DNA from: Candidatus Omnitrophota bacterium
GTDB lineage: Bacteria > Omnitrophota > Gorgyraeia > JABMRN01 > RBG-13-46-9
Length of the DNA stretch: 59,618 nucleotides
NCBI GenBank assembly: GCA_020346285.1
Contig: CP070780.1
Span: 164,265 to 223,882 of the forward strand
Direction of reading: 5' to 3'
Shown: positions 7,916 through 27,376 of the stretch, piece by piece
Layout of the letters: each line of letters opens with the position of its first letter
How positions within the stretch are numbered: the first letter of the stretch is position 1
Notes under the pieces: model-generated
Databases searched by the model: none
Seen by the model: only the letters and a program-made list of their open reading frames with translations
Told to the model about the DNA's origin: nothing
Program-made: the position numbers and the translations under genes

Positions 7916-8740
7916 ATGAAAAAAATGTTAGATTTAGAAAAGAAAACCAAGGAATTAAGAAAAGTGATATTGAAAACAATTTGTAAAGGAAGGGGAGGAC
8001 ATATTTCTGCTTCACTTTCGATCGTAGAGATCTTAGCTGTCCTTTACTACAATATTTTGAAAGTAGACCCTGGCAATCCTAAAGACCCCGAGAGGGATAG
8101 ATTCATATTAAGTAAAGGCCATGCCGCGGTTACGTTGTATGCTGTTCTTGCAGATAAAGCTTTTTTTGACAGAAAACACCTTGATACTTTTGGCCAAAGA
8201 GGGACGATTTTAGGCGGACATCCGGATATGCATAAGGTTCCCGGCGTGGAGGCATCCACAGGGGCATTGGGGCATGGGTTTCCTTTTGGAGTAGGAATGG
8301 CCCTGGCCGGAAAACTGGATAAAAAGGACTATCGTGTATTTATTCTTTTAGGGGACGGGGAATGTCAGGAGGGTTCTGTCTGGGAGGCCGCTCTTTTTGC
8401 TCCCCAGCATAAGTTAGACAATGTCATCGCTATCATAGATTACAATAAATACCAGGCATTGGATAGGCTGGATAAGATTGTATCTCTGGACCCCTTAGCT
8501 GATAAATGGAAGGCGTTTGGATGGGAGGTAAGGGAAGTCGACGGACATGACACTTCCGAACTGCTGAATGTTTTTAAAGACACCCCTTTTGTTAAGGATA
8601 AACCCAGTTTAATAATCGCAAATACAACCAAGGGTAAAGGCATCTCCTATATGGAAAATGCAGCTATCTGGCATTATCGGTCGCCTAATGAAGAAGAAAT
8701 AAAAGTAGTATGCGATGAATTAGACATGGAAAGTTTTTAA
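7916..8740 (+). CDS. transketolase, N-terminal (ThDP-binding) subunit
   Basis: GGHISASLSIVEILAVLYY, SKGHAAVTLYAVL, TGALGHGFPFGVGMALA, LLGDGECQEGSVWEAA. I chose the ATG at 7916 (MKKMLDLEKK); the listed 7868 start would overlap the upstream gene. Confidence 0.9.
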   Translation: MKKMLDLEKKTKELRKVILKTICKGRGGHISASLSIVEILAVLYYNILKVDPGNPKDPERDRFILSKGHAAVTLYAVLADKAFFDRKHLDTFGQRGTILGGHPDMHKVPGVEASTGALGHGFPFGVGMALAGKLDKKDYRVFILLGDGECQEGSVWEAALFAPQHKLDNVIAIIDYNKYQALDRLDKIVSLDPLADKWKAFGWEVREVDGHDTSELLNVFKDTPFVKDKPSLIIANTTKGKGISYMENAAIWHYRSPNEEEIKVVCDELDMESF

Positions 8741-9695: not shown

Positions 9696-10350
9696 GCTAT
9701 TGAGTATTATCACCTCTTTACATAAAAATACAAAAAGAGATTATATAAAGAGAATGCTGGATGAAAAGGCAGCATGCTCAAGGGTAGCAAGAAGGTATGG
9801 CAGGAATTACTGGGACGGGAATAGGAGATACGGTTACGGCGGCTATAAATACGACGGACGCTGGGAAGTTGTGGCAAAGAAACTCATAGAAGTATACCGC
9901 CTTAAAAATAATGCCAAAATTTTAGATGTAGGCTGTGGAAAAGGCTTTTTATTATATGAATTTAAAAAACTCCTGCCCCAAGCAATATTAAAAGGTTTTG
10001 ATATATCACAGTATGCCATAGAGAATGCAAAGGAAGAGATTCGCGATAATCTCTTCATTCACCGGGCACAGGATCCTTATCTCTTCAAAGATAAGGAGTT
10101 TGATCTTGTTCTATCATTAACGACCCTTTATAACATCTGCATAGATGACTTGAAGTCCGCATTGCAGGAAGTGGAGAGGGTCGGCAAAAATAAATATGTA
10201 ACTATGGAAAGCTACCGGAACGAGAGAGAATTGTTTAACTTGCAGTGCTGGGCACTGACATGTGAGTTATTTTTCAGGCCGGAAGAGTGGAGATGGTTAT
10301 TTGACGTATTTGGCTATACCGGAGACTACGAGTTTATATTTTTTGAATAA
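9688..10350 (+). CDS. class I SAM-dependent methyltransferase
   Basis: Motif I ILDVGCGKGFLL. 220 aa. 8-nt overlap with the transketolase C-subunit gene. Confidence 0.75.
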   Translation: MGKLLSIITSLHKNTKRDYIKRMLDEKAACSRVARRYGRNYWDGNRRYGYGGYKYDGRWEVVAKKLIEVYRLKNNAKILDVGCGKGFLLYEFKKLLPQAILKGFDISQYAIENAKEEIRDNLFIHRAQDPYLFKDKEFDLVLSLTTLYNICIDDLKSALQEVERVGKNKYVTMESYRNERELFNLQCWALTCELFFRPEEWRWLFDVFGYTGDYEFIFFE

Positions 10351-10368
10351 AAATAAAGGGAGAACCTA

Positions 10369-11445: not shown

Positions 11446-11462
11446 TAATGCGAACCCGATAA

Positions 11463-12554: not shown

Positions 12555-12557
12555 ATT

Positions 12558-13082
12558 ATGAATATCAAGAAAATTAATGACGAAGTTTTCTATTCTTCTA
12601 ATGCAGTTACAAAAATTAGTAAAGAGGATATAGCGTGGCTCAGGGCTCGTGCAGCTGAAAACCCCAGAAAGCGGGTGCGTCTTTGCGGCCACAGAAATAT
12701 TGAAGATTTAATACATGAAATGCTCATTATTCACGCTAAGGGGATTTATGTTCGGCCACATAAACACCTAAAAAAAATTGAGTCATTCCACACAATTGAG
12801 GGTAATCTTAAAGTTGTGGTGTTTGATGAGTCTGGAGGTATCTTAGAGGTAATCCGTATGGGAGATTATCTTTCGGGAGAGATATTTTACTATAGACTTT
12901 CCGAGAGCTATTTTCATACTGTAATACCCTTATCTGATTTTGTGGTTTTCCATGAAATAACAGAAGGACCGTTTCAGCGCAAAGATACTGTCTTTGCACC
13001 CTGGGCTCCTGCAGATGATGAATATGAATCCCAGAAGCTCTATTTAAATAAATTAAAGACAGAGATAACGAGGAAAGGATGA
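12558..13082 (+). CDS. WbuC-like cupin-fold protein
   Basis: RKRVRLCGH...EMLIIHAKGIYVRPHKH...ESFHTIEG matches my recollection of the WbuC cupin family. 174 aa. Function unknown. Confidence 0.55.
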   Translation: MNIKKINDEVFYSSNAVTKISKEDIAWLRARAAENPRKRVRLCGHRNIEDLIHEMLIIHAKGIYVRPHKHLKKIESFHTIEGNLKVVVFDESGGILEVIRMGDYLSGEIFYYRLSESYFHTVIPLSDFVVFHEITEGPFQRKDTVFAPWAPADDEYESQKLYLNKLKTEITRKG

Positions 13083-14044
13083 ATTACCATCTAAAGGGCT
13101 CAAAAGCTATCAAATATGTTGAAAAAACACTAGGATACCCCTTAGAGACTTTGCTTCTTTTTCCTAAATTCTTTTTAATAGAGACAATTAATGTATGTAA
13201 TACACGATGTATTATGTGTGGAATCGACTTTGACAAAAAGAAAAAAGCTGCTATGACAGATAATCTCTTTGATAAAATAACAAATGAAATAACGCAGTAT
13301 AGTAATCATGTGGAAAAAGTGATACTTTATCTTGATGGCGAACCACTTTTAGATAGGAAACTTCCTTCAAGAATCCGAAAGTTGAAAGAGGGGGGTATTA
13401 AAAAAATCAATATTGCCAGCAATGCAAGTCTTCTTGATTGTGCAAAGGCAAGGCAAATTATTGACGCGGGCTTAGATGAGATTTATATTACTCTCGATTC
13501 TTTAAAAAAGGATGTCTTTGAAACCGTTCGTCCCAGACTAAAGTTTGAAACTGTGTATAAAAATATTATTGATTTTGTTAAATTGAGAAACCAGCTTAAT
13601 CCAAAACTTACTATTCGCATCCAAATGATTCTACAGAAGTTGAACTATCATGAGGTCGATTCTTTTAGCCACCATTGGGTTCCTCGGTTGAACCCTAATG
13701 ACCAGGTGATTGTACAGAAAGCCCATAACTGGGGTTCAACAGTAGAAGTTATGGAGTTTGGTGACGAAGATACGATTAACTATGTCCCTTGTATTGCCTT
13801 ATGGGGGACCCTCTGTATTCATGTGGACGGGCAGGTAGGACTCTGTTGTATGGATACCAAAAGCACATTACCTCTTGGTAAGGTTACTTCACAAACCATT
13901 GCTGAAATATGGTCTGGTAAGCCTTTGAGAACTATAAGAGAAAAGCATATAGAGGGGTGCAGATACCAAATTTCGCTCTGTAATAAATGCACTGTTTGGA
14001 GGGAAACTAAACACGAAAGGGAGAAAGTTTTAAAAACTGCTTGA
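13079..14044 (+). CDS. radical SAM / SPASM-like domain protein
   Basis: CNTRCIMCG cluster and LDGEPLL motif. C-terminal CIALWGTLCIHVDGQVGLCCMD ... LCNKCTVW. ATGA overlap with the upstream gene. Confidence 0.8.
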   Translation: MNYHLKGSKAIKYVEKTLGYPLETLLLFPKFFLIETINVCNTRCIMCGIDFDKKKKAAMTDNLFDKITNEITQYSNHVEKVILYLDGEPLLDRKLPSRIRKLKEGGIKKINIASNASLLDCAKARQIIDAGLDEIYITLDSLKKDVFETVRPRLKFETVYKNIIDFVKLRNQLNPKLTIRIQMILQKLNYHEVDSFSHHWVPRLNPNDQVIVQKAHNWGSTVEVMEFGDEDTINYVPCIALWGTLCIHVDGQVGLCCMDTKSTLPLGKVTSQTIAEIWSGKPLRTIREKHIEGCRYQISLCNKCTVWRETKHEREKVLKTA

Positions 14045-14045
14045 G

Positions 14046-15923
14046 ATGGATACCGCAATTATAAATTCCAAGGAATTTACACTATCGGACAATTTATCTT
14101 TAATAGAATATTGCAAGTCGCTAAGATCAAGATACAAACCGAACAAGAAGGTATTGCTTGTACAAATCCCCCAATTTATTTTTAAATCGTTTAATTCCGA
14201 GATTGCAAAAAGGAAAGGATATTACATTTTCCCTCCGACGGGACTGCAGTATTTATACGAGTCTTTAAAAAATAGGGATTTAGATATAAAAATTCTTGAC
14301 TTAAATTTTATGCTTTTAAAAAAAGTGTGTGAAGACGAAATATTTGACGACACGCAGTGGTTAATAAGCCTTAAAAATAGCCTTAAGTCATTTAAGCCCT
14401 TTATTATGGGGGTATCCTGTATGTATGATTCCGGCATACCGTCTTTGATGCAAATACTTGAATTTCTAAAAAGAGAGGGTCAATCTGTTATAATAGCAGG
14501 AGGGGTAATCGCGACATACGAATGGGAAAATTTGCTTTCACGGAAATTGTGCCATTTTGTAGTCAAAGGAGAGGGCGAAAATAAGATTAATTATCTTTTT
14601 GACCACTTGACAGAAGAAAATCAAAATTTCGCCCCAATTCCCGGAATCTGCTATAACTACCAGGACAATGATTTTGCTACAAATGGCAAACAGGACAAGA
14701 TTACGCTAGCTACCGATTTAATAGATAGTTATTCTTTAATTGAAATTGAGAAATATCACGAATACGGTTCTTTAAATCCTTTTTCGAGAATATCCGGGAT
14801 TTCTGACCATCCCTTTGCGGCCATTCAGATGAATAGGGGGTGCCGGGGGGCGTGTACCTTTTGCTCCGTCCACGATTTTATAGGAAGCGATATCCACAAA
14901 AGGCCCGTTGATAAAGTATTGGACGAGATGGAATTTCTAATTAATAGACGAGGAGTGAGACACTTTGAATGGCTAGACGATGATTTACTTTTTTTTAAAA
15001 AAGATTTTCAACTTTTGTTGAAAACAATTATAAAACGCAAATGGAGAATTAGCTGGTCAGCAAACAATGGTCTGATCGCCTCATCCATAGACGATGAGAT
15101 GATGCGATTGATGAGAGATTCCGGCTGCATAGGTTTTAAAGTAGGAATAGAAACCGGCAACGCTGAAATGCTAAAGAAAATTAAAAAGCCCGTTACATTA
15201 GATACATTTAGAAGAGTTTCTCGTATATTTAAACACTATCCCGAGATTTTTGTTGGAGGTAACTTTATGTTGGGATTTCCTCACGAGAGATTTTGCCAGA
15301 TGATGGATTCTTTTTGGTTTTTTCTGGAGCTAGATTTAGACTGGGGCGCTTTTACCATATGTCAAGCTATCAGAGGCGCAACGGCTTTTAGCGATTTTGA
15401 GGATCATTTTAGCACACAAATAAGTTTAAACGATGAAAATATAAAGAATTTTATTCCAACAAGGGAATCTCCAAAAGGACAGCTTTCTAACAAGCTCGGT
15501 ATTTTTAAAAGCATGGATGTTTTTAAAATAAATCCCGAAACTGTTCCCAGCGAAGAACAGGTTAAGGAAATATGGTTTACGTTCAATCTTGTCGGAAATT
15601 TTATTAATAATAAAAATTTAAAACCAGAAGGCAAGGTAGAGAAATTTATTTCCTGGGTTGAAATGGCTCAAATTGCCTATCCCACAAATGCATATATGAG
15701 TCTTTTTTTATCTCTTGCCTATATCATTAAAGGTGATCAAAAGAATTCTCGGAATTATTATAATAAAGCAGTGTTATGCCACCAGTCTGATTATTGGCGT
15801 GAAAGATTTTCTTCTTTCGGGTTAACGGGAGTATTAAATAACTTACCGAGAAATGCAGAGACGGCATGGAAAACTATGGAAACATTGCGAGAATATTGTT
15901 CGTTGCATTACCGTGTTGGATAA
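14046..15923 (+). CDS. B12-binding-domain radical SAM protein (class B type)
   Basis: N-terminal B12-binding-like region (VLLVQIPQ...IMGVSCMYDS...VIIAGGVIAT...VVKGEGE) followed by NRGCRGACTFCSV. 625 aa with a long C-terminal extension. Confidence 0.8.
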   Translation: MDTAIINSKEFTLSDNLSLIEYCKSLRSRYKPNKKVLLVQIPQFIFKSFNSEIAKRKGYYIFPPTGLQYLYESLKNRDLDIKILDLNFMLLKKVCEDEIFDDTQWLISLKNSLKSFKPFIMGVSCMYDSGIPSLMQILEFLKREGQSVIIAGGVIATYEWENLLSRKLCHFVVKGEGENKINYLFDHLTEENQNFAPIPGICYNYQDNDFATNGKQDKITLATDLIDSYSLIEIEKYHEYGSLNPFSRISGISDHPFAAIQMNRGCRGACTFCSVHDFIGSDIHKRPVDKVLDEMEFLINRRGVRHFEWLDDDLLFFKKDFQLLLKTIIKRKWRISWSANNGLIASSIDDEMMRLMRDSGCIGFKVGIETGNAEMLKKIKKPVTLDTFRRVSRIFKHYPEIFVGGNFMLGFPHERFCQMMDSFWFFLELDLDWGAFTICQAIRGATAFSDFEDHFSTQISLNDENIKNFIPTRESPKGQLSNKLGIFKSMDVFKINPETVPSEEQVKEIWFTFNLVGNFINNKNLKPEGKVEKFISWVEMAQIAYPTNAYMSLFLSLAYIIKGDQKNSRNYYNKAVLCHQSDYWRERFSSFGLTGVLNNLPRNAETAWKTMETLREYCSLHYRVG

Positions 15924-15924
15924 A

Positions 15925-17124
15925 ATGTCAAATTGCGAAAACAAATTAAAGCCATCTCTTCTTAAATATTATCAGGATTATTGTTTTAATCCTGTACCGA
16001 TCAATGTTGAGGATAAAAACGTATGGGAATTACATATGGTTAAACGCCGTAATCTTTATGAAAGACATTTGAAAATTCCACTTTCTTTGTTTAATGGGCG
16101 TTCAGTGATTGAATTTGGTTGTAATTCAGGAGAAAATGCTTTACATCTCGCAGCTTGTGGTGCAAGGTTAACACTGGTAGAACCTAACGACCAAGTATTG
16201 CCTCGATTGAAGACTTTATTTAAAAACTTTGGGTTTGAACAAAGCATAGTAGCCCTGGTGAACAAAGATATAGCTGGATTCGAATCTCAGAACTTCTATG
16301 ATGTAGTGTTAGCTGAAGGATTTTTGAACGCGCTTTCAAATCGGGATGAGATGTTTTTAAAAATCTGTAGATTTCTGGTACCAAATGGATTAGGTGTTAT
16401 TTCATTTGATGATCGATACGGTTCTTTACTTGAAGTTACGAAACAGTTGATTCTAAAACGGGCATGTTGCTTGAAAAAAATTGACGATATCCACAGCCAG
16501 ATTTCCTTAGAACTGGCTAAAACTCTATTCGGAGAGGATTTCGCACGACTGAATGCTTCACGGTCTTTTGAAGTTTGGTGGAAAGACGTGTTGCTAAATC
16601 CATTTGTGGCATGGAAGCATCTTTGGACTTATCAAGAATTTATTCCCCTTCTTGAGAAGGCTGGCTGTGAATTTTATTCTTCTTCTCCTAAATGGACTCG
16701 GGTCGATCATTTTTTGTGGTATAAAGATGTACCAAACAGCGAAGACCGGCATCAACGTCTTCTAAGCGATTGGCACAGAGCTTTTCCTTCTTTTTTGACA
16801 GGACTACCTTTCTTTGATGAAAAAATTGAGCTTGCCCCTTTTGATGTAGTAGAAGCTACCTCTGAGTTGATAGAAAAAATTTCTGAATACGTGTCATCAG
16901 AGAATTTGTCTATAGATTCGGTCTCTTATCCATCCGAACTCGATAATTATCTTAATAAGAGTGAAATTGCAGAATTACAAGTATTTAATGACGAGATGAA
17001 GAGAATATTTGATGTTGTAAAATCTTCTCAATTTGATGAGTTAATTTCCAATTACCACGATACAAAATATATAAGGATGTTTTGGGGGACCCCTTGTCAC
17101 TATATTTGTTTTATCAAACGATGA
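15925..17124 (+). CDS. class I SAM-dependent methyltransferase with a long C-terminal extension
   Basis: Motif I VIEFGCNSGENALHLA ... LVEPN. ATG at 15925 lies directly after the upstream stop (15921-15923); the listed 15853 start would overlap the upstream gene. Confidence 0.7.
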   Translation: MSNCENKLKPSLLKYYQDYCFNPVPINVEDKNVWELHMVKRRNLYERHLKIPLSLFNGRSVIEFGCNSGENALHLAACGARLTLVEPNDQVLPRLKTLFKNFGFEQSIVALVNKDIAGFESQNFYDVVLAEGFLNALSNRDEMFLKICRFLVPNGLGVISFDDRYGSLLEVTKQLILKRACCLKKIDDIHSQISLELAKTLFGEDFARLNASRSFEVWWKDVLLNPFVAWKHLWTYQEFIPLLEKAGCEFYSSSPKWTRVDHFLWYKDVPNSEDRHQRLLSDWHRAFPSFLTGLPFFDEKIELAPFDVVEATSELIEKISEYVSSENLSIDSVSYPSELDNYLNKSEIAELQVFNDEMKRIFDVVKSSQFDELISNYHDTKYIRMFWGTPCHYICFIKR

Positions 17125-18386
17125 ATCAATTAAAGAGAAAAAGTAACCCATTTATTAATTTTTTGCGCAGGCCAATCAGAGAGACTTGCCAAAAAGGCTT
17201 ATCTGTGCTGTTCAGAAAATGCCGAACACTTCTATTAATAGTGTTAGCAATACCGGTTGTTGTTCTGGTGCGTGCGTTACAGCCACTGGTATTAATACGG
17301 TTTGGGCGTTTAGAAAGTAGAAGGATTGGTCATTTCATTGAGAATACGGAGATATATCTGTCTGAACGTGATGGAGGGATGCACGATCATCGGACTTTTG
17401 ACATATTTTACCACTACTTACCAATTTCTAATTATCAGGTGAAGAAGATGTGGGAGAGGACAGGGAGGCTATGCATCTCGCCATTCACCGCTTTTACGCA
17501 AGCAATAGATAGGTTTAACCGTCTACTGCCAGGTGGCCAGCGACATACGATTTCACCATCAGCTAGGGACGTCTATGGCCTTCGTGCACACACTAAGCCA
17601 TACCTTTCTTTTACGCCCGAAGAGGAACGTTTAGGACGCCGAGAACTCCAGAAACTGGGCATATTTGATGGAGCTCCTTTTGTCTGTTTTCATGCGCGAG
17701 ACTCAGCCTATTTGGATACCACCTATCTGAACTATAGGTGGCGCTACCAGGATTTTAGGGATTCGAGCATTCATAACTATATCTCCGCCGCGGAAGAATT
17801 GGCACACAGGGGTTATTTCATGTTTAGAATGGGTACAGTAGTAAAGAAAGCGCTGCATAGCAACAACCCCAGAATTATCGATTATGCCACAAATGCCAGA
17901 ACAGACTTTCTGGATATATATTTGAGTGCTAAATGTCGATTCTTTATCTGCGATACCGCCGGTATCTCTTCTGCACCTACAGCCTTTAAACGGCCGATAG
18001 CCTGGGTAAACTATATTCGGCTTGGATATATCCCTAGCGGTGTTGTAAAGAATTTGCTTATTCCTAAGAAACTTTGGTTGTGCAAAGAACATCGTTTCCT
18101 GACTTTTCGTGAAATCTTAGATTCAGACATAGGCCGTTTTAATAAGGCTGAAGAATACGAACAGGTTGGAATAGAACCCGTAGAAAACACTCCAGAGGAG
18201 ATTGTTGCTCTGGCTGTAGAAATGGATGAGCGGTTGAAAGGCAAGTGGCAGACGACTGAAGAGGATGAAGAATTACAACGGCGCTTCTACGCACTTCTTA
18301 ATCCATGCAATTTGAATTTGAAGCAGATTGTTATACCACGGATTGGCGCAGAATTTTTGCGTCAAAACCCCGGGTTTTTAGAATAA
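17121..18386 (+). CDS. membrane-anchored protein of unknown function, paralog A (possibly a glycosyltransferase-like family)
   Basis: ATGA overlap with the upstream stop. N-terminal hydrophobic anchor LLLIVLAIPVVVLV. Strongly similar along almost its full length to 22252..23427. No catalytic motif recognised. Confidence 0.45.
   Translation: MNQLKRKSNPFINFLRRPIRETCQKGLSVLFRKCRTLLLIVLAIPVVVLVRALQPLVLIRFGRLESRRIGHFIENTEIYLSERDGGMHDHRTFDIFYHYLPISNYQVKKMWERTGRLCISPFTAFTQAIDRFNRLLPGGQRHTISPSARDVYGLRAHTKPYLSFTPEEERLGRRELQKLGIFDGAPFVCFHARDSAYLDTTYLNYRWRYQDFRDSSIHNYISAAEELAHRGYFMFRMGTVVKKALHSNNPRIIDYATNARTDFLDIYLSAKCRFFICDTAGISSAPTAFKRPIAWVNYIRLGYIPSGVVKNLLIPKKLWLCKEHRFLTFREILDSDIGRFNKAEEYEQVGIEPVENTPEEIVALAVEMDERLKGKWQTTEEDEELQRRFYALLNPCNLNLKQIVIPRIGAEFLRQNPGFLE
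17229..18386 (+). repeat. diverged direct repeat, copy 1 (paired with 22277..23427); boundaries approximate
   Basis: Nucleotide similarity is visible across the gene body. Exact shared runs include gggattcgagcattcataactatatc at 17758-17783 and 22808-22833, and ctttcttttacgcccgaagagga in both copies. Confidence 0.8.
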
Positions 18387-18388
18387 GA

Positions 18389-18448
18389 ATGAAAAAGATG
18401 TTAGATTTAGAAAAGAAAACCAAGGAATTAAGAAAGGATAGGCTGTGA
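18389..18448 (+). pseudogene. remnant copy of the 5' end of the transketolase N-subunit gene (19-codon ORF)
   Basis: 18389-18436 matches 7916-7963 at 46 of 48 nt, with two A/G third-position differences. It encodes MKKMLDLEKKTKELRK, identical to the real gene's N-terminus, then diverges and stops at a TGA overlapping the GTG start at 18445. Confidence 0.85.
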
Positions 18449-19686
18449 GTAAAACTTTTTTCCAGCGTCAGAGCTGTCGTTTATGCGGGGGAAATGATTT
18501 AAAGAATGTTTTACCGCTTACGCCAACGGCACTTTGCGATGCATTTGTTTCTCCAGAGAACATTAACCAGGAACAGGAAATCTATCCGCTGGATCTCTTT
18601 ATGTGTTCCGATTGCGGATATGTGCATTTGCCTTACGTGGTTAACCCTGAGATCATATACCGTGATTATATTTACAGCACTACGAGCTCGCTGGGATTAT
18701 CCGAGCACTTTCAGAGCTATTCTGAGGAAGTGATGCACCGTATAAATCCTTCTAAAGGTGCCTTGGTGGTGGATATCGGCAGTAATGACGGCACATTGCT
18801 AAAATTTTTCAAAAAGAGGGGTATGCGTATATTGGGAGTTGAGCCAGCCAATGAAATTGCTCGAAAAGCAACGACATCAGGCATTGAGACCCTGCCGGAT
18901 TTCTTTAGCTCTGAGTTGGCCGACAAAATCGTAAAGGATTTCGGCCCTACCACGATAGTTACAGTTAATAACCTGTTTGCCAATATTGATGATTTGGAGG
19001 GATTCACCAAGGCTATTTGTAAACTTCTTACGCCTGAAGGTGTTTTTGTTGTCGAATCCTCCTACTTGGGCGACATGATGCAAAACATGGTTTTTGACTT
19101 TATTTACCATGAACACCTGTCTTATTTTTTGATAAAGCCTCTAATAGGCTTCTTCCGTCGTTTTAACATGGAGTTGATCGATGTCGAGCATGTGCCCACT
19201 AAAGGAGGTTCCCTGCGTTACTATTTCCAGTTAAAAGGCGGACCTAGATATATCTTGCCATCTGTTGCCAAGATGATAGCACATGAAGATTCTCTTGGTC
19301 TGGATCGGCCTGAAACCTTTAAAGCCTTTTCTGACAAAATCGACAGTAGAAAATCCCAACTTATGAACAAGTTAGGCGAGCTTAATTCGCAGAAAAAAAC
19401 TATTGCAGGTTACGGTGGCTCGGCAACTACTACTACGCTGATACATCATTTTGGTCTGGGTAAGATGATGGACTATATTGTTGATGATAATCCAGCGAAA
19501 CAAGGCACATTTAGCCCTGGTTACCACATCCCTGTATTTCCATCAGGGCTCTTATATAAGCGAAAACCCGACTATGTGCTTATTCTGGCCTGGAGATACG
19601 CCAAGCCGATTATGAAGAAACACCGGGCATTTTTGGAACAGGGCGGGCATTTCATTGTGCCTTTGCCTGAACTTGAGGTGATTTAG
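18445..19686 (+). CDS. NDP-sugar C-methyltransferase family (Zn-ribbon, class I MT, C-methyltransferase C-terminal domain; TylC3-like architecture)
   Basis: N-terminal CRLCGG...CSDCGY zinc ribbon. Motif I VVDIGSNDGTLL. Long C-terminal domain ending IAGYGGSATTTT...PGYHIPV. GTG start. Confidence 0.7.
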   Translation: MSKTFFQRQSCRLCGGNDLKNVLPLTPTALCDAFVSPENINQEQEIYPLDLFMCSDCGYVHLPYVVNPEIIYRDYIYSTTSSLGLSEHFQSYSEEVMHRINPSKGALVVDIGSNDGTLLKFFKKRGMRILGVEPANEIARKATTSGIETLPDFFSSELADKIVKDFGPTTIVTVNNLFANIDDLEGFTKAICKLLTPEGVFVVESSYLGDMMQNMVFDFIYHEHLSYFLIKPLIGFFRRFNMELIDVEHVPTKGGSLRYYFQLKGGPRYILPSVAKMIAHEDSLGLDRPETFKAFSDKIDSRKSQLMNKLGELNSQKKTIAGYGGSATTTTLIHHFGLGKMMDYIVDDNPAKQGTFSPGYHIPVFPSGLLYKRKPDYVLILAWRYAKPIMKKHRAFLEQGGHFIVPLPELEVI

Positions 19687-19687
19687 G

Positions 19688-20773
19688 ATGAATAAGATTT
19701 CTTGGTGGCGGACAGATTTCGGTAAAGACGAGGTACGCAAAATAAGAGAGTCAATTCTCCATGAGCATGTGAGCCAGGGGCCTGTCACGGCTGAGTTCGA
19801 GGCATCCCTTGCCGAGGTTCTCGGGGTTCCGTATGTCGTCGCAACCACGAGCGGAAGTATGGCGCTGTTGATGGCTTTGCTTGCCGCAGGGATCGGCCCC
19901 GGCGATGAGGTTGTCGTTCCAAATCGAACATGGATTGCTACAGCTCATGCACCGCTGCTTTTGGGTGCAAAAGTAGCGCTGGTAGATGTTGAATCCGAGT
20001 ATCCAATTATGGATGTAACCCAACTTGAGAGAAAGATTACCCCGCGAACCAAGGTGATAATGCCGGTTCATTTGAATGGTCGGGCAGCGGGGATGGAAGA
20101 GGTAAGTAAAATTGCAGCTTGCCACCAGCTGCGAATAATCGAGGATGCGACTCAAGCATTTTGTTCAAGGAATACAAAAGGTTTGCTCGGCACCCAATCC
20201 GACGCAGGCTGTTTTTCACTGGCAATTGCCAAACTCATTTCTACCGGCCAGGGCGGGTTTGTTGTTACTAGAGATAAACAGGTTTACAAAAGGCTGAAGA
20301 TGATGCGTACCCATGGCGTGGACGATGTGATTGACGTTTCATACACTGATATGGGGTTTAACTTCAGGTTTACCGATATCCAGGCATCAATAGGAATTGC
20401 TCAACTTAGCAACCTTCCGAAAAGGATTGCAAAGATAAAGGCTATCTATACAAGATATAGAGATGCGATGCATGAATTTCCTTTCCTGAAGTTTATCCCT
20501 GTTGATATTGTCAGGGGTGAGTTGCCGATTTACATCGAGGTTCTATGCCCCGAACGTAAAAAGCTTATGCAATTTTTAGCTGACCGCGATATTCAAACAA
20601 GACCTTTTTACCCTGATTTGAATCATGCAGCGTATTTCGGAAGTAAAGAGCGCTTTCCGAACTCAGAGGTTTTCGGTGAGCAGGGCCTTTTCCTTCCGTG
20701 TGGTCCGGGCCAGCCGCTGGAGAATGTGGACAGGGTAATCGAAGCCCTGCGTGCGTTTGGAGATAGTCTATGA
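19688..20773 (+). CDS. DegT/DnrJ/EryC1/StrS-family PLP-dependent sugar aminotransferase
   Basis: ATTSGSMALLMALLAAG. Candidate PLP lysine in CFSLAIAKLISTGQGGFVV. 361 aa. RBS gaggtga. Confidence 0.85.
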   Translation: MNKISWWRTDFGKDEVRKIRESILHEHVSQGPVTAEFEASLAEVLGVPYVVATTSGSMALLMALLAAGIGPGDEVVVPNRTWIATAHAPLLLGAKVALVDVESEYPIMDVTQLERKITPRTKVIMPVHLNGRAAGMEEVSKIAACHQLRIIEDATQAFCSRNTKGLLGTQSDAGCFSLAIAKLISTGQGGFVVTRDKQVYKRLKMMRTHGVDDVIDVSYTDMGFNFRFTDIQASIGIAQLSNLPKRIAKIKAIYTRYRDAMHEFPFLKFIPVDIVRGELPIYIEVLCPERKKLMQFLADRDIQTRPFYPDLNHAAYFGSKERFPNSEVFGEQGLFLPCGPGQPLENVDRVIEALRAFGDSL

Positions 20774-22239
20774 AATCAAATACAATCAGAAAGATTATGC
20801 TTACAGTTCCTAACGGCCTCTGGTTCCGCAATAGGACGTTCAAGCTTATTCCCTATAATCTCGCACTCCTGCAAGCGGTTATCCCTCGGGAATATGAAGT
20901 TTGTATCCTTGACCCTAATCTTGAAAATCTTAGTATTGAACAAGTAGGCGAAAAAATTAATGCTTTTCGCCCTGATATGGTTGGAATAACTGCAAGTTCC
21001 TTGGAGTTTTCAAAGAGCGTGCATAAAATGGCAGAGCTTACTAAAACAATAAGCCCTACTACGTTAGTTATACTAGGTGGTGCCTACGCTACCGTGACGC
21101 CTGAGTTTCCAATGGAAGATACGAATATTGATTTTGCCATTCTTGGTGAGGGAGAAGAGCGATTTCCCATGCTTCTGGAAATGTTGAAAAAAGGAGACAA
21201 AGATTTTACTAAATTTGACGGTCTCGCTTACAGAAAAAACAGTAAAGTTATCATAAATTCAATGAAGAGTTTTATTGAAAATCTGGATAAACTGCCCTTC
21301 CCGGCTTATGACAAGTTTAATTACCGTACCTATGCCAATAGACCCGATAAGTATGCCAATACGCTCCTTCCCAAATATTACCCTTATGCGGTTACCTCTA
21401 CGTCAAGAGGATGTCCCTTTGATTGTATATACTGCCATACATGGGCGAAGGATGGCAAGAAGACGAGGTTCAAGTCGGCCGAGAGGGTGTTGGAGGAGAT
21501 AGATTGGCTGGTAAATGATTACGGCACCAAAGAGCTAATTTTTCTGGACGACAATTTCAACCTGAATAGGCCGCGGTTCGTGAAAATATTAAAGGGTTTA
21601 ATTAAAAAGAATTATAATCTGCATTGGAAGTCCATCAACATCACGGCATTTCTGCTGGATGAAGAGTTGCTGGAATTAATGAAGGCAAGCAAGTTGTATC
21701 AATTAATCCTTCCGATTGAATCCGGCAACCAGTACGTTTTAGACAAGATACTGCGTAAGCCCTTGAAACTGGAGAAGATGCTTGCGATAATTAAAAAAGC
21801 CAAGGAGCTCGATTTTGAAATAGCTGCTGATTTTATAATTGGAATTCCCGGCGAAACGTGGGATCAGATACGGGATACCACGCGCTTTGCCGACGTGATT
21901 GACGTTGACCTTGTCCTCTTTCACATCGCTACGCCTATTCCCAAGACAGAACTCTACGATATAGCGAAGCGGAATAACTATCTTGGTAAGGATTTCGACT
22001 TTAGGTCACATAAGTTTTTCGGATTCGGGCGCGGCTATATTACAACCGATGAGTTTAGTCCTTATGATTTACATAGATTAAGGGCTTTTGAATGGGACAG
22101 GATAAATTTTAAGACCCAGCGAAAAAAAGAGCGTTATGCAATGATGGCAGGGATTAGTTTGGAGGAATTAGACAAGTGGCGGAAAGAGACGATAAAGAAT
22201 GCCGGGCTATATTTTCCCGAACATACCCATGTGGCGTGA
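20770..22239 (+). CDS. B12-binding-domain radical SAM protein (class B type)
   Basis: N-terminal B12-binding-like region (MVGITASS...VILGGAYAT...AILGEGE) followed by SRGCPFDCIYCHTW. ATGA overlap with the upstream aminotransferase gene. Confidence 0.85.
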   Translation: MKSNTIRKIMLTVPNGLWFRNRTFKLIPYNLALLQAVIPREYEVCILDPNLENLSIEQVGEKINAFRPDMVGITASSLEFSKSVHKMAELTKTISPTTLVILGGAYATVTPEFPMEDTNIDFAILGEGEERFPMLLEMLKKGDKDFTKFDGLAYRKNSKVIINSMKSFIENLDKLPFPAYDKFNYRTYANRPDKYANTLLPKYYPYAVTSTSRGCPFDCIYCHTWAKDGKKTRFKSAERVLEEIDWLVNDYGTKELIFLDDNFNLNRPRFVKILKGLIKKNYNLHWKSINITAFLLDEELLELMKASKLYQLILPIESGNQYVLDKILRKPLKLEKMLAIIKKAKELDFEIAADFIIGIPGETWDQIRDTTRFADVIDVDLVLFHIATPIPKTELYDIAKRNNYLGKDFDFRSHKFFGFGRGYITTDEFSPYDLHRLRAFEWDRINFKTQRKKERYAMMAGISLEELDKWRKETIKNAGLYFPEHTHVA

Positions 22240-22251
22240 GATTCTGACGCG

Positions 22252-23427
22252 ATGAAGTTGTTACGGAAAAGCCTAACTTTGCTTTTGATGGTGCTGATGC
22301 TGCCGGTGGTTTTTCTTATGCGCGTGTTACGGCCACTAGTGACAATACGCATTGGGCCTCTACTCTCGAGAAGAATCGGCCATTTCATAGATAATACGGA
22401 GATATATCTGTGTGAACGTGACCGAGGGATACACAATAGTCGGACATTCGACATTTTCTACCACTATCTCCCGATTTCTAATCAGCAGGTAAAGAAAATG
22501 TGGGAGAGGACAGGAAAATTACGCATCTCTCCTTTTGCTAAGTTTACGCATACCCTGGACAGAGTTAATCGTCTGCTACCGGGCGGTAAGCCGCATACGA
22601 TTTTAACACCGGACATGGATTTCTACGGCCTCCGTGCAGCTACGAAACCGTATCTTTCTTTTACGCCCGAAGAGGAGCGTCTGGGCCGCGAGGAACTCCG
22701 GAAACTGGGCATATCTGGTGGCAGGCCTTTTATCTGTTTTCATGCCCGAGATTCAGCCTACCTGCGTGACGCGTATCCTGATTATAACTGGCGCTATCAG
22801 GATTGTAGGGATTCGAGCATTCATAACTATATCCCTGCAGCGGAGGAGTTGGCGCGCGAGGGGTATTTTATGGTTAGGATGGGTGCTATAGTAAAGGAGG
22901 CGTTGAAGACCAAAAACCCCATGATTATTGATTATGCCGTAAAAGGCAGAACAGATTTTCTAGATATATACCTGGGCGCTAAATGCCGATTTTTTATCTG
23001 TGACGGCAGTGGTGCTTCCAGCATACCCATGGCTTTTAGGCGGCCAATAGTTTGGGTAAATTATGTTCAGCTTGAATTTATACCTATTTGGGGGATACAG
23101 GATTTATTTATTCCCAGGAAGCTTTGGCTGCGGAAAGAGCGTCGGTTTTTGACCCTTAGCGAAATCATAAATTCGGATATAAAAAGATTTTTCAGTGAAC
23201 AGTATGAACAATTGGGAATAGAAGTTGTGGAAAACACCCCGGAAGAAATCAGGGTTGTGGCTCTGGAAATGGATGAACGACTAAAGGGAACATACAAGAC
23301 CACCGGGGAAGATGAGGAATTGCAACGGCGTTTCTGGTCAGTTTATAAAGAGCGCTGGCCACATAGAAAAATTCTATCGCGGATTGGCGCTGAATTTTTG
23401 CGTCAAAACCTGGAATTTTTGGAATAG
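22252..23427 (+). CDS. membrane-anchored protein of unknown function, paralog B of 17121..18386
   Basis: Same architecture, with long identical peptide runs (RRIGHFI.NTEIYL, TFDIFYHYLPISN, KPYLSFTPEEERLGR, DSSIHNYI, RTDFLDIYL.AKCRFFICD, VENTPEEI, RIGAEFLRQN). Confidence 0.45.
   Translation: MKLLRKSLTLLLMVLMLPVVFLMRVLRPLVTIRIGPLLSRRIGHFIDNTEIYLCERDRGIHNSRTFDIFYHYLPISNQQVKKMWERTGKLRISPFAKFTHTLDRVNRLLPGGKPHTILTPDMDFYGLRAATKPYLSFTPEEERLGREELRKLGISGGRPFICFHARDSAYLRDAYPDYNWRYQDCRDSSIHNYIPAAEELAREGYFMVRMGAIVKEALKTKNPMIIDYAVKGRTDFLDIYLGAKCRFFICDGSGASSIPMAFRRPIVWVNYVQLEFIPIWGIQDLFIPRKLWLRKERRFLTLSEIINSDIKRFFSEQYEQLGIEVVENTPEEIRVVALEMDERLKGTYKTTGEDEELQRRFWSVYKERWPHRKILSRIGAEFLRQNLEFLE
22277..23427 (+). 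repeat. diverged direct repeat, copy 2 (paired with 17229..18386); boundaries approximate
   Basis: See copy 1. The similarity continues a few nt past both stop codons (tttt.gaata.ga...atgaaa). Confidence 0.8.
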
Positions 23428-23435
23428 GAGGCAGA

Positions 23436-24674
23436 ATGAAATCTGACAATAAACACATCTCTGTCCATCATATAGGCGCGAGGTCCGGAAGTAGAGCCTT
23501 TCCCATCCTTAACAGGTTTGAAAAGGATATTATAAATGTGCTCTATGATATGGACCCTGACTGCCTTCGGCAAATTCGGGAAAGAAATCAAAATCTTAAG
23601 TCAGAACTTCATGTTTTACCATATTGCTTGGGTGATACTTGTAAAAAGACTTATGTCAATATCAACTATGATCCGTATACCAGCTCACTCTACGAATTGA
23701 ATCCTAACTATAACGAATACTATGAGTTTAATTGCGACCATGATTATCTTTTATCAGAAGCTTGCAGGACAATGGAAAAGCGCCCCGTTGAATTGGTGAC
23801 TATAGACCATATTTTTCAGTCAAAAGGTACCGGGATGCCTCCCCCTGATTTTCTCTCTATCGATACTGAGGGTTCAGAATACGAAATACTATTAGGTGCA
23901 AGAGAAACTTTAAAATCGGATATTGTAGCAGTAGTCCTGGAAGCCGAGTTTCACCCGTTCCGTAAAGGACGAAAACTTTTTGGAGACCAGGTTAAACTTT
24001 TGTCCGATCAGGGGTTTGAGTTTGCGAGATTTCTTAACATACAGGAAGCATCTCCATTTAGGGCCCCGATTGGTCTTCGTGCCGAAGGATTCCACGCGGC
24101 TTCCGATGTTCTTTTTTTAAGACGGCCGGATAATATAGATGTTGAGAGAAACAAGCTTAAAAATTATCTTATGTTACGAAAGTTAGCTTTCATAGCCATT
24201 GCATTTAGTCAGTTTGAATATGGGATAGAATGTTTACGCCGGAGTAAAGATTTAATTGGTCATCATCGCCCGGATAGACAAGAAGAACCTGTTTATATGA
24301 GGTTCCTGAGAGAACTCGAGCAACATATAGAGAGAATGCCGCAGATTTTTCCTCCTACATTTGCTACGAAATATCCGTCATTCGCTGCGAGTAAATCGCG
24401 TTTTGAAAATTCCACTACCAATAAAATGAGAAATCCGACCGGGACGGCGCACCGGATTAAACAACTATTGAGACAGATTTCCGTATTGTATCCATTATTA
24501 AAACGCATTAAATGTATTTTTGATAAACTTTTTTCTAAAGTAGTTTTTTCTATAAAATTGATGTTGACGCGAAAGACTGGTATCGAGGCCCTCCTTATTC
24601 AATACGGTCTGAAGGCCCATGCGAATATACTCAGGAGAAACAGGATTATCCAAACGCAATTTCTCAAGAAATAA
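23436..24674 (+). CDS. FkbM-family methyltransferase with a ~180-aa C-terminal extension
   Basis: VHHIGARSGSRAF and FLSIDTEGSEYEILLGA match FkbM-family hallmarks. RBS aggagg. I did not recognise the C-terminal half. Confidence 0.65.
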   Translation: MKSDNKHISVHHIGARSGSRAFPILNRFEKDIINVLYDMDPDCLRQIRERNQNLKSELHVLPYCLGDTCKKTYVNINYDPYTSSLYELNPNYNEYYEFNCDHDYLLSEACRTMEKRPVELVTIDHIFQSKGTGMPPPDFLSIDTEGSEYEILLGARETLKSDIVAVVLEAEFHPFRKGRKLFGDQVKLLSDQGFEFARFLNIQEASPFRAPIGLRAEGFHAASDVLFLRRPDNIDVERNKLKNYLMLRKLAFIAIAFSQFEYGIECLRRSKDLIGHHRPDRQEEPVYMRFLRELEQHIERMPQIFPPTFATKYPSFAASKSRFENSTTNKMRNPTGTAHRIKQLLRQISVLYPLLKRIKCIFDKLFSKVVFSIKLMLTRKTGIEALLIQYGLKAHANILRRNRIIQTQFLKK

Positions 24675-24691: not shown

Positions 24692-26464
24692 ATGAAAGCG
24701 ATAGATTTTGTCTACAAAATTTTTAGAAAATTTCCTTTTTTACTCATTGCCAATACGGCGCTCTTAATTGCCGTGAGTTTGTTTGGTGCCTGCTCCCTCT
24801 TGACCATAAGCCCGGTTATCGACCTTTTAATTCATCCGGACCTTCAGGGGGTTAGCCCTCTTACCAGTAGAGCAATTGGGATACTTGAGTTTTTCGGCCT
24901 GCCTGTAACCTTGCGGAATTGGATGATCATTTTTACAATTTTTGTAAGTCTTAGCAGCATATTTTATGTTTTTGCCAGGCGCTCGATTTTAAGAACTGTA
25001 TACGCAGTATTACGAGAAATAATGATGGGGACGTTTGAAGATTTTTTTAATGCCCGCTGGTACTTCTTTAGCAGTAGCAAGCAAGGAATGCTTTTAAATA
25101 CCTTTACTCGTGAACTTACTGTTGTCAGCCTGGCCTTTGGCGCGATAGCGTATCTTTTTGCCTGCACAACGCAGCTGATTTTGTTTCTGGTGATACCTTT
25201 TTATCTTTCCTGGCAGGTAGCCACTATCAGCTTAAGCGCTGCCTTGGTATTTACCCTGCCGTTTATCTTGCTGGGGAAATATAGTTACCGGTGGGGCACC
25301 TTGAATACCAGAACGGCCAATCAGATGACTTCGGTTGTCCAGGAAAATTTTAGTTTGGCTAAGCTTATAACGGGATTCGGCAATCAGCACAAAAGTATTG
25401 AGAGCCTTGGCAGGGCTTTTGACGCTCATCGCTGCGTCACTATTAAATCACAGGTTCTCAACAGCGCCGTTCCGGTACTCTATCGTCCGTTTGGCGTGAT
25501 TATGATTGGTATTGCGTTGTTCAGCGCGCGCAGGTTTAATGTTCCTTTATCGGAAACAACTGTGCTACTCTTATCTTTAACGCAAGTCGCCGTTGCCATC
25601 AGTAATGTGACAATGCATAAAAACTCTTTAGAGAACTTTTCTCCCAGCTATGAACAGATCGAAGCCTTAAGACATCGGGCCCAACAGCTAAAGCAGGTTT
25701 CAGGGTCCAGGCAATTTAGGGGTTTCGACCACGAACTACTTATCGAGGGACTTTCTTTTGCCTATCCTGAGCACAAACCAGTTTTGCTTGATATCAATGT
25801 GCGCGTTCCCAAAGGGAAAATGGTAGCTTTCGTGGGAGAATCAGGGTCAGGCAAATCAACGTTTATTGATATAATACTGGGGTTTTATCAACCGACGAAG
25901 GGCACAGTCCTGATTGATGAAGTTCCCTTGCAGAATTTTGATATAAAGTCATATAGGCATCGGGTTGGTTATGTACCACAGGAAAGCGTCTTATTCAATA
26001 CGAGTATTCGAGACAACCTCCTCTGGTCCAAAGAAAATGCTACCGAAAGAGAGATTAAAGAAGCCTGTCAACAGGCGCATGCGGATGAATTTATCGAAAG
26101 ATTGTCTCAAAGATACGATACCTTGGTGGGGAATCGTGGCATTCGACTGTCAGGGGGGCAGGTTCAGCGGATTGCCTTGGCAAGAGCGATACTACGAAAG
26201 CCGGATATTTTAATTCTAGATGAAGCTACCAGTTCTCTGGATACACATTCTGAACGGCTGATTCAGCAGGCTATCGAAAACATTGCAAAAAAAACCACCA
26301 TCATAATCGTTGCCCACCGGCTTTCCACGATTGTGAACGCGAATTTTATATATGTTTTTAAAAAAGGGCGTATTATAGAGGAGGGAACCTACGCCGAACT
26401 TATCCGGATGGACGGCGAATTCCACCGGATGACTAAGTTGCAGGTTTTGGAGACAGTTAGTTAA
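24692..26464 (+). CDS. ABC exporter, fused permease and ATPase (MsbA/PglK-like half-transporter)
   Basis: Hydrophobic N-terminal half. Walker A GESGSGKST, signature LSGGQVQRIALARA, Walker B ILILDEATSSLD. 590 aa. Confidence 0.9.
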   Translation: MKAIDFVYKIFRKFPFLLIANTALLIAVSLFGACSLLTISPVIDLLIHPDLQGVSPLTSRAIGILEFFGLPVTLRNWMIIFTIFVSLSSIFYVFARRSILRTVYAVLREIMMGTFEDFFNARWYFFSSSKQGMLLNTFTRELTVVSLAFGAIAYLFACTTQLILFLVIPFYLSWQVATISLSAALVFTLPFILLGKYSYRWGTLNTRTANQMTSVVQENFSLAKLITGFGNQHKSIESLGRAFDAHRCVTIKSQVLNSAVPVLYRPFGVIMIGIALFSARRFNVPLSETTVLLLSLTQVAVAISNVTMHKNSLENFSPSYEQIEALRHRAQQLKQVSGSRQFRGFDHELLIEGLSFAYPEHKPVLLDINVRVPKGKMVAFVGESGSGKSTFIDIILGFYQPTKGTVLIDEVPLQNFDIKSYRHRVGYVPQESVLFNTSIRDNLLWSKENATEREIKEACQQAHADEFIERLSQRYDTLVGNRGIRLSGGQVQRIALARAILRKPDILILDEATSSLDTHSERLIQQAIENIAKKTTIIIVAHRLSTIVNANFIYVFKKGRIIEEGTYAELIRMDGEFHRMTKLQVLETVS

Positions 26465-26473: not shown

Positions 26474-27376
26474 ATGATGATTAGTAAAAGAAACATCTTG
26501 ATAACCGGCTCCTCCGGCATGTTGGGCGTTGATCTCGGCAGCGAACTCGCGAGAGATTATAATATTATTGGTATGGATGTTAAGCCATCAGCCGTCAACC
26601 ATCAGCTTTCAGCTTTTATAAAATGTGACATAACGGACAAGGATAGGATCATAAAATCTGCGAGAGATGCAAAACCGGATTTAATAATTCACACAGCTGC
26701 CTGGACGGATGTTGATGGGTGCGAGGAAGAACCTGAAAAGGCAAAAAAGATAAATCAGAAAGGTACGGAAAATGTTGCAATTTCGACTTCAGAATTGAGC
26801 ATTCCTTTAATATATATAAGCACTGATTTTGTATTTGACGGAAATAAAAAAGCCCTCTATACCGAAAACGATCTGCCTAACCCTGTAAATATTTACGGCA
26901 AATCCAAATTAGAAGGAGAAAAAAAAGTCGCAGCGTTGAATAAATATATTATATTGAGGACAGGCTGGATGTTTGGTGTGAATGGAAAGAATTTTGTTGA
27001 TACAATACTGGATAAAGCTAAAGCCAAGAAAGAGATAAAAGTTGTAGATGACCAAATCGGATGTCCCACATATACGAAAGACTTTGCAACGGCAATTGGC
27101 AAGTTGCTTTCGGTAGTCCCCATACGAGACACACGAGAAATATATCACATAACAAACAAGGGAGCGGTTACATGGTTTGATTACACGAAAGAAATAATAA
27201 AAATACGAGGGGTAGATAATATACAATTGGTGCCGATAAAAAGCGACCAACTTAATAGACCAGCTAAAAGACCCGCCTTTTCGGTATTGGATAACAGTAA
27301 GTTTGAAAAGGCAACAGGTTTCGTCATGAGACCATGGCGAGATGCACTTAGGGAGTATATAAATGCGAAAAAATAA
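26474..27376 (+). CDS. rmlD: dTDP-4-dehydrorhamnose reductase
   Basis: ILITGSSGMLG, YGKSKLEGE (YxxxK), RTGWMFG, and the C-terminal RPAFSVLDNSK pattern typical of RmlD. 300 aa. Confidence 0.8.
   Translation: MMISKRNILITGSSGMLGVDLGSELARDYNIIGMDVKPSAVNHQLSAFIKCDITDKDRIIKSARDAKPDLIIHTAAWTDVDGCEEEPEKAKKINQKGTENVAISTSELSIPLIYISTDFVFDGNKKALYTENDLPNPVNIYGKSKLEGEKKVAALNKYIILRTGWMFGVNGKNFVDTILDKAKAKKEIKVVDDQIGCPTYTKDFATAIGKLLSVVPIRDTREIYHITNKGAVTWFDYTKEIIKIRGVDNIQLVPIKSDQLNRPAKRPAFSVLDNSKFEKATGFVMRPWRDALREYINAKK

Follow-up and report, generated by a model that had tools for sequence, protein, structure and literature searches.

A pair of old TIGR04372-family paralogs, putative membrane-anchored glycosyltransferases, on either side of a sugar-modification cassette in an Omnitrophota genome

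Two paralogous genes around three sugar-modification genes

We analysed a stretch of 59,618 nt from a Candidatus Omnitrophota bacterium (contig CP070780.1 of assembly GCA_020346285.1, positions 164,265 to 223,882; hereafter ‘the window’), whose genome is a single contig of 1.43 Mb, 91% complete and with a GC content of 42.2%. The window carries a long co-directional gene array; the genes described below between 15853 and 26464, and the transketolase gene start at 7916, lie on the forward (+) strand. Our subject is a pair of genes within it that encode putative glycosyltransferases of the TIGR04372 family: T1 (17121..18386; 421 aa counted from its ATG, with a longer open reading frame (ORF) that begins at a TTG at 17082), recognised by the TIGR04372 hidden Markov model (HMM) and by its 69% identity to the partner, and T2 (22252..23427; 391 aa), recognised by the same HMM and by an AlphaFold2 model of the glycosyltransferase B (GT-B) type. 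Genes and proteins of this family are referred to here as T. We computed directly their family membership, fold, membrane anchor, duplication age, the selection on both copies and the statistics of their neighbourhoods.

The original prediction, made from the letters of the window, took T1 and T2 for clear paralogs of roughly two-thirds or more protein identity that share exact nucleotide runs of 23–26 nt. Both points held: BLASTP aligned the two proteins with 256/373 identical residues (69%; 79% positives, E 1e-178), and the longest exact run is in fact 28 nt (17756–17783 = 22806–22833), which includes the 26-nt example given in that prediction and is followed by runs of 23 nt (17604/22654), 19, 19 and 17 nt. 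They are by far the closest paralogs in the window, all other pairs being at most 37% identical. At the DNA level, identity is 71.7% in a codon alignment (75.8, 82.9 and 56.4% at codon positions 1, 2 and 3, respectively) and 72.7% across 1141 nt by BLASTN. If identity were uniform at 72.7%, an exact run of at least 28 nt would have a probability of ~0.04; the run falls on the conserved motif RDSSIHNYI and therefore reflects constraint rather than being evidence of gene conversion. We accordingly rejected gene conversion as its origin, being unneeded given that chance and the motif underneath.

As was also predicted, the pair stands as direct repeats on either side of three genes, and domain matches bore out the nature of each. 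These are an NDP-sugar C-methyltransferase with a GTG start (18445..19686; PF08421, 1.8e-20, and PF08484, 2.1e-50, or Methyltransf_13/14), laid out as a zinc-binding N-terminus, a methyltransferase core and a C-terminal domain; a DegT/DnrJ/EryC1-type, pyridoxal phosphate-dependent sugar aminotransferase (19688..20773; PF01041, 1.9e-85); and a B12-binding radical S-adenosylmethionine (SAM) enzyme (20770..22239; PF02310 and PF04055) that is probably a methyltransferase, its best NCBIfam matches being B12-radical SAM methyltransferases, all far under their cut-offs. The genes are tightly packed: the radical SAM gene start overlaps the DegT stop (ATGA at 20770), T2 begins 12 nt after the radical SAM stop, and 8 nt separate T2 from the gene that follows it.

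Family membership and predicted fold

T1 and T2 are plain, intact members of TIGR04372. Against the NCBIfam model (‘family glycosyltransferase’; 207 positions, curated cut-off 45 bits), T1 scored 222.7 bits over model positions 1–207 and T2 scored 215.3 bits over positions 2–206. Alignment with 91 homologues runs from end to end of both proteins and so takes in the N-terminal half outside the HMM; in the resulting set of 94 sequences they retain all 17 invariant columns, and of the 117 columns with a conservation of 90% or more each departs from the consensus at only 8. A hydrophobic helix near the N-terminus is found in 91/94 aligned members (Kyte-Doolittle 19-residue mean 2.4–2.6) and spans residues 36–54 of T1. 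T2 is without the ~27-residue N-terminal cytoplasmic tail found in T1 and in the family consensus; such short N-termini are frequent among family members of 369–395 aa.

The family is large and widely spread. It comprises 8257 clusters at 50% identity at E ≤ 1e-3 and 3360 at E ≤ 1e-30, and more than 2000 matches passed among 8000 candidates scored from a collection at 90% identity. Its range takes in Omnitrophota, Planctomycetota, Chloroflexota/Dehalococcoidia, Aminicenantes, Nitrospirota, Desulfobacterota, Proteobacteria, Bacteroidota, Chlorobi, Patescibacteria and Leptospiraceae, along with one Methanoregula archaeon. In long members (among them P0183, P0227, P0256, P0264, P0191, P0184 and P0169) the TIGR04372 core is fused to a GT2 domain, an RmlD-like reductase, a B12-radical SAM domain or tetratricopeptide repeats (TPR); N-terminal TPR fusions were present in 4 of the 10 long members tested and hint that some of the family may act on proteins.

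The AlphaFold2 model of T2, built from the 94 sequences, was of high confidence (predicted local distance difference test (pLDDT) 94.5, predicted TM-score 0.91) and shows a single N-terminal helix and, after it, two alpha/beta domains, with strands and helices alternating in two blocks. When whole T2 was searched against the PDB with Foldseek, WaaF (1psw; E 9e-7), a heptosyltransferase of glycosyltransferase family 9 (GT9), came first, followed by a Veillonella GT9 protein (3tov) and then by TibC and WaaC; the matches after these were UDP-N-acetylglucosamine (UDP-GlcNAc) 2-epimerases and TagF, which are also GT-B proteins, and Foldseek probabilities were 0.99–1.00 to GT9, UDP-GlcNAc 2-epimerase and TibC chains. 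For the C-terminal, donor-binding domain alone (residues 153–350; model pLDDT 95.5), the top 22 matches were all GT9 or TibC chains (1psw, TMq 0.56), with no sialyltransferase or 3-deoxy-D-manno-octulosonic acid (Kdo) transferase among the top 50. The predicted donor site comprises the invariant residues R166, R209, D238, R298, E339 and R343 together with the FFIxDxxG block. Among related genomes, 5 of the 8 weak matches to the TIGR04372 HMM fell inside true GT9 genes (PF01075). On these models, T is predicted to have a GT-B fold, and the GT9 heptosyltransferases appear to be its nearest known family. The TIGR04372 scores and a predicted fold closest to GT9 thus support the earlier suggestion that the pair are transferases.

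The best structural matches, WaaC and WaaF (2h1h, 1psw) and TibC (4rap/4rb4), share with T the predicted GT-B fold, and there is a likeness of context as well, in that genes of an ADP-heptose-type pathway lie in T’s island and in 11 of the 41 related loci with full flanks (defined below). Other features set them apart. T has an N-terminal membrane helix, which WaaC and WaaF are not known to have; TIGR04372 extends to monoderm bacteria and to an archaeon, organisms that lack lipopolysaccharide (LPS); and this genome has five ordinary GT9 genes elsewhere, four at C1:229204-234931, which is 5–11 kb past the end of the window, and one at 1018876-1019625. These genes make it probable that the LPS core of the organism contains heptose, and the island’s heptose-type genes may feed the ordinary GT9 enzymes too. 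TibC itself is an autotransporter heptosyltransferase related to GT9 (eLife 2014, PMC4358343).

Age, origin and stability of the pair

The duplication is old and both copies have been maintained. Between T1 and T2 we estimated 0.215–0.23 nonsynonymous (dN) and 0.9–1.2 synonymous (dS) substitutions per site, with dN/dS ~0.18–0.25; synonymous sites are near saturation and the duplication is therefore not recent, while a ratio of ~0.2 over a dS of ~1 means that both copies have been under purifying selection since the split. The original prediction of a recent duplication is thus not sustained, and homologues on other contigs (P0002, P0004–P0008) bear this out, for they are as near to each copy as T1 is to T2 (dS 0.96 for T1–P0004 and 0.93 for T2–P0006, vs. 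1.2 for T1–T2). In a 26-sequence tree that included these metagenome homologues, T1 and T2 fell within a 9-member clade (support 100/99) and were sisters in 0/200 bootstraps, although an approximately unbiased (AU) test did not reject their sisterhood (p=0.097). When species-representative genomes alone were used, T1 and T2 were sisters with 99% support. An old duplication and an acquisition from a close relative would each fit the pair.

The second of these origins, in which T2 came with the C-methyltransferase–DegT–B12 cassette from a close locus by horizontal transfer or recombination, we consider a realistic possibility that falls short of probable; it bears on where the copy came from, and not on what it does. 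In its favour, T1 and T2 are not exclusive sisters once metagenome contigs are included, the loci are mosaics that hold the same gene set in differing orders, the GC content at third codon positions (GC3) of T2 (0.47) is closer to that of the cassette (0.45–0.47) than is that of T1 (0.41), and the absence of the region from a genome of the same genus points to a horizontally mobile island. Against it, the AU test leaves the sisterhood of the pair standing, the two are each other’s nearest relatives among species representatives, and in other phyla the T genes found beside a DegT orthologue fall apart from T2 in the tree.

Parts of the cassette are also found elsewhere. C-methyltransferase orthologues (40–62% identity) recur in loci of other phyla, DegT orthologues (55–63% identity) lie upstream of a T gene in eight loci (L027, L028, L030, L048, L065, L067, L068 and L092), and the C-methyltransferase–DegT sub-module as a whole (40–63% identity) turns up in eight or more loci from other phyla, as a rule right before a T gene. 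The gene content thus suggests that the locus is a mosaic and the three-gene cassette a mobile sub-module that recurs in other phyla. The T genes next to the sub-module are not grouped with T2, and T therefore does not co-travel with it; in keeping with this, the idea that each T travels with its own sugar module was rejected, T genes that lie downstream of orthologues of DegT, or of the methyltransferase found upstream of T1, being unclustered on the tree (2 changes among 4 rows, no better than shuffles).

Composition and a small sequence scar give some indication of how the locus was assembled. Upstream of T1 lies a 423-aa class I SAM methyltransferase (MT423; 15853..17124; Pfam Methyltransf_23/12/11/25), whose stop overlaps the T1 start (ATGA) and whose orthologues stand directly upstream of a single T gene in loci L019, L020, L033 and L079. 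It is the last gene of a block running DegT–DUF6016–radical SAM/SPASM–B12-radical SAM–MT423 (11463–17124), the GC content of which is in the lowest 5% of the genome (genome GC 0.422). GC3 rises from 0.30–0.35 at 11.4–17.1 kb to 0.41–0.47 from T1 through T2, with a step from 0.30 in the MT423 gene to 0.41 in T1, 0.45–0.47 in the cassette genes and 0.47 in T2; so sharp a change at ~17.1 kb suggests that the low-GC3 block arrived separately.

Between the T1 stop and the C-methyltransferase start there is a 19-codon ORF (18389..18448), its TGA overlapping the GTG start, whose first 48 nt (18389–18436) match the start of the gene for a transketolase N-subunit (7916..7963) at 46/48 positions; the source was identified by direct reading and BLASTN, which gave 91.8% identity across 61 nt. 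This copy looks like filler or the junction scar of a rearrangement, and would place, where T1 meets the cassette, a rearrangement junction far more recent than the divergence of T1 from T2. A single tandem duplication of 7916–18388 yielding both the scar and T2 was tried and rejected, since the scar is 96% identical to its source and T1 and T2 are 72% identical, and the two events therefore differ in age. The right-hand endpoint of the rearrangement may sit in the 5′ end of the ancestral gene (22240–22330), given the tail that T2 is missing, and the frequency of short N-termini in the family speaks against this placement.

We next consider whether the pair is a switch. The original prediction saw in the direct repeats a substrate for repeat-mediated gain or loss of the cassette: T1 and T2 would recombine, delete or re-insert 18.4–22.3 kb and leave a hybrid gene, and strains would thereby alternate between glycans. 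Several features invite this reading, namely that the repeats enclose a self-contained three-gene module, that two related loci (L018 and L019) have the window’s gene order with one T and no cassette, that the 48-nt copy shows rearrangement at the T1/cassette boundary, and that hypervariable loci in Omnitrophota commonly carry surface genes, a preprint on 223 chromosomes of the phylum (bioRxiv 10.64898/2026.06.07.730766) listing LPS/capsule glycosyltransferase and polysaccharide genes in their cargo. The arrangement likewise resembles known recombination-driven switching of surface glycans in having homologous genes as direct repeats around a sugar-modification cassette within a mobile island. 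We nevertheless consider it very unlikely. Long near-identical direct repeats are absent, the copies being 72.7% identical over 1141 nt with an exact run of at most 28 nt. For RecA-dependent recombination, 28 nt is at the minimum processing length, and an identity of 72–73% lowers its rate by orders of magnitude. A dS of ~1 implies that the copies have long coexisted without homogenisation, and L018 and L019 come from different organisms (~62–67% protein identity), not from strain variants.

At 122 diagnostic sites that differ between T1 and T2, single-copy relatives resemble both copies equally and in an interleaved manner (44 vs. 44 in P0002), with no block pattern of an N-terminal T1 joined to a C-terminal T2, and L018 was rejected as a deletion hybrid on the same count (44 vs. 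44 interleaved sites). A metagenome scan with T2 for close strains returned nothing above 50% identity, and thus no variant strain was found; in the same-genus genome, the region is absent, an RmlD-like gene and the 3′ end of the ATP-binding cassette (ABC) gene being all that matched. In short, the identity of the repeats, their dS and the lack of a hybrid signature in single-copy relatives all depart from recombination-driven switching, and T1 and T2 appear from these comparisons to be an ordinary stable paralog pair.

Gene neighbourhoods and a proposed role

Downstream of T2 lie a gene for an FkbM-family methyltransferase (23436..24674; PF05050, TIGR01444) and one for an ABC exporter of the MsbA/PglK type (24692..26464), in which transmembrane and nucleotide-binding domains are fused. 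The exporter was identified by 57.9% identity over 586 aa to one with ABC_membrane and ABC_tran domains in a second island of the genome, and homologues in L017, L018 and L068 hold both domains as well. A scan of 15.5–27 kb for promoters and terminators found no excess above shuffled sequence, which is consistent with one long co-directional gene array. The order T–FkbM–ABC is also seen in L018 and L024. In full, L018 reads DegT–DUF6016–radical SAM/SPASM–B12-radical SAM–small gene–T–FkbM–ABC, and L019 reads ... B12-radical SAM–MT423–T–ABC.

We compared the architecture of 82 related loci from many phyla, with 85 T genes scored for their immediate neighbours, clustered the neighbouring ORFs of 79 genome loci, and counted partners in 41 loci with at least 8 kb on both sides. 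One T is present in 69 of the 82 loci, two in 12 and three in 1, and 5 of the multi-copy loci are directly tandem. The commonest gene immediately downstream of T is an ABC exporter (24/85), and the commonest named gene immediately upstream is NTP_transferase (9 cases). Among the 79 loci, the partners of T were DegT aminotransferase (37), MsbA-like ABC exporter (36), short-chain dehydrogenase-type epimerase/dehydratase (33), a 220-aa methyltransferase (29), NeuB (25), an HldE-like kinase/nucleotidyltransferase fusion (21), NTP_transferase (19), CMP-sugar synthetase (17), C-methyltransferase (16) and transketolase N-subunit (16). In the 41 loci with full flanks, an ABC exporter was present in 24, DegT in 27, NeuB or CMP-sugar synthetase in 20 and an HldE-like gene in 11.

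The same genome holds a third copy, T3 (52% identical), in its second island (L004, C1:1146000-1165999), where it lies next to the 58%-identical ABC exporter. That island also has a split transketolase, a DegT, a methyltransferase, radical SAM/SPASM enzymes and a CMP-sugar synthetase, and one of its radical SAM proteins is 78% identical to that at 10369–11445 of the window. Among relatives, the distribution of TIGR04372 is patchy: 4 of 41 genomes had a match above the cut-off, and the same-genus genome had none.

The original prediction took the locus to be short of recognisable transferases; it is less so than was supposed there. Other candidates in it are a GT2 gene (47261–47971), a GT87-like gene (44935–46305) with a weak match at the cut-off, and a gene for a 639-aa protein (43011–44930) whose C-terminal half is weakly GT-B-like (Epimerase_2, Glyphos_transf, DUF354), and the five GT9 genes lie beyond the window. 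Its gene following those for NeuB and a B12-radical SAM protein, the 639-aa protein is a candidate transferase of nonulosonic acid or of a phospho-sugar; in L017, a 621-aa protein without a Pfam match occupies a similar position. Further downstream of T2, a UDP-sugar 6-dehydrogenase is split into overlapping ORFs at 27363–27830 (N-terminal NAD domain) and 27802–28683 (central and C-terminal domains), consistent with a frameshift or a homopolymer sequencing error.

We propose, as a reading that we hold to be reasonably likely, that T1 and T2 are two intact TIGR04372 members that act as non-redundant transferases, adding tailored sugars before export. Each copy would take a nucleotide-activated, heavily tailored sugar from the enzymes encoded around it (radical SAM and B12-radical SAM methylases, the C-methyltransferase, aminotransferases, and the heptose-type and nonulosonic-acid modules) and pass it to an acceptor bound to the membrane. 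This acceptor is most likely a glycan linked to polyprenyl, and in TPR-fused relatives perhaps a protein; the product would afterwards be flipped by the MsbA/PglK-like ABC exporter encoded alongside. The pair would have arisen by an old duplication, or by exchange among close relatives, within a shallow clade, and the three-gene cassette would have been placed between the copies by a rearrangement. Glycosyl transfer, the identities of donor and acceptor and the division of labour between the copies are what we infer in this proposal; the fold, the anchor and the partners and fusions fit a transferase at the cytoplasmic face, with tailored nucleotide sugars as its substrates and an exporter as the recipient of its product.

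For the donor, a heptose-type sugar is a candidate in view of the GT9-like donor domain and the heptose genes (HldE-like and GmhA-like) of the island; the island also holds the nonulosonic-acid module, and nonulosonic-acid genes are the more frequent neighbours of T (20/41 vs. 11/41). A polyprenyl-linked acceptor would agree with the exporter and also with the occurrence of TIGR04372 in monoderms and an archaeon. A close parallel is the PglK/MsbA type of lipid-linked glycan assembly, in which cytoplasmic transferases are followed by an ABC flippase: T likewise stands beside a fused exporter, immediately so in 24/85 cases, within 24/41 loci with full flanks and in both islands of this genome. 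The parallel is incomplete, in that no initiating phosphoglycosyltransferase, oligosaccharyltransferase or ligase is tied to T here, and the fusions to TPR suggest that proteins serve as acceptors for some members.

That both copies do the same job, whether for dosage or as back-up, or that one of them is drifting to loss, seems unlikely to us. A single T suffices in 69 of the 82 related loci, and T2 is without the tail of T1 and of the consensus; these points speak for a redundant or decaying copy. On the other side, purifying selection has acted on both copies over a dS of ~1 (dN/dS ~0.2), all 17 invariant residues are retained in each, short N-termini are frequent in members of the length of T2, and phyla unrelated to one another also have multi-copy loci, with as many as three copies. 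Purifying selection on both copies argues for different jobs, be it in donor sugar, acceptor position or linkage. The suggestion of two functional, non-redundant copies made in the original prediction is thus supported by the substitution ratio, the invariant residues and the few deviations from consensus.

A further objection is that T may not be a glycosyltransferase, the GT-B-like scaffold serving instead for TagF-type phosphotransfer, for nucleotide-sugar 2-epimerisation or hydrolysis, or as a non-catalytic scaffold for methyltransferases and radical SAM enzymes. The following points weigh against the role that we propose. GT-B folds also house epimerases and phosphotransferases, and the fold matches after GT9 include UDP-GlcNAc 2-epimerases and TagF. 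Whole-chain TM-scores to GT9 are low (0.41–0.47), as would be expected if the two domains were set at different angles. By sequence, no Pfam family matched T1, T2, T3 or three other members at E ≤ 10, so that membership of GT9 (PF01075) is not apparent, and PDB searches by sequence and by profile matched no chain. An hhalign comparison with a profile of 18 GT9 proteins gave a probability of 2.3% (E 0.02), its alignment of T2 residues 132–266 with the GT9 C-terminal domain, which sets ‘FFICDGSG’ opposite ‘VISNDSGPMH’, being topologically sensible and in line with the fold result. Our literature search found no paper that mentions TIGR04372 and hence no assayed member, nor any that joins nonulosonic acid, radical SAM, ABC transporter and glycosyltransferase. 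The claim of the original prediction that the family has no assigned activity therefore stands insofar as no experimental study was found, and falls insofar as the family has a name; T1 and T2 are new members of a family already named, the name (a PGAP product name) being itself a prediction. Lastly, those T genes of other phyla that follow a DegT orthologue lie apart from T2 on the tree, which gives no evidence of co-evolution between T and a sugar module, so that a difference in specificity between the copies is something we infer. For all this, we consider it improbable that T is something other than a glycosyltransferase: GT9 and TibC head the structural matches of the entire protein and of its donor domain alike, a membrane anchor and an adjoining lipid-type ABC exporter fit a transferase working on a membrane-bound acceptor, and the members fused to GT2 or to enzymes that tailor nucleotide sugars suit a protein that uses such sugars.

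The pair as such is ordinary: two long-diverged paralogs, from a family that has a name, within a surface-glycan island that is mobile. Its value lies in the family to which it belongs. What is new here is the GT9-like character of the isolated donor domain, the figures for divergence and selection, the single-copy comparators with their negative hybrid test, and the statistics of neighbours and fusions. We put forward more tentatively, and as a possibility that we would not yet call likely, that TIGR04372 is an unrecognised family of membrane-anchored glycosyltransferases, far-derived from GT9 and dedicated to a widespread ABC-exporter-dependent glycan route, in which multi-copy loci would provide one transferase per tailored sugar. 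If true, this route would build surface glycans from radical-SAM-tailored sugars of the heptose and nonulosonic types in Omnitrophota and in many other, mostly uncultured phyla. The family has thousands of sequence clusters in bacteria and some archaea, no Pfam model or solved structure, and genes consistently linked to an MsbA/PglK-type exporter and to rich sugar tailoring (radical SAM, B12-radical SAM, C-methylation and amination). A function for one member would therefore annotate many ‘hypothetical’ genes and open a route to the glycan structures of uncultured bacteria.

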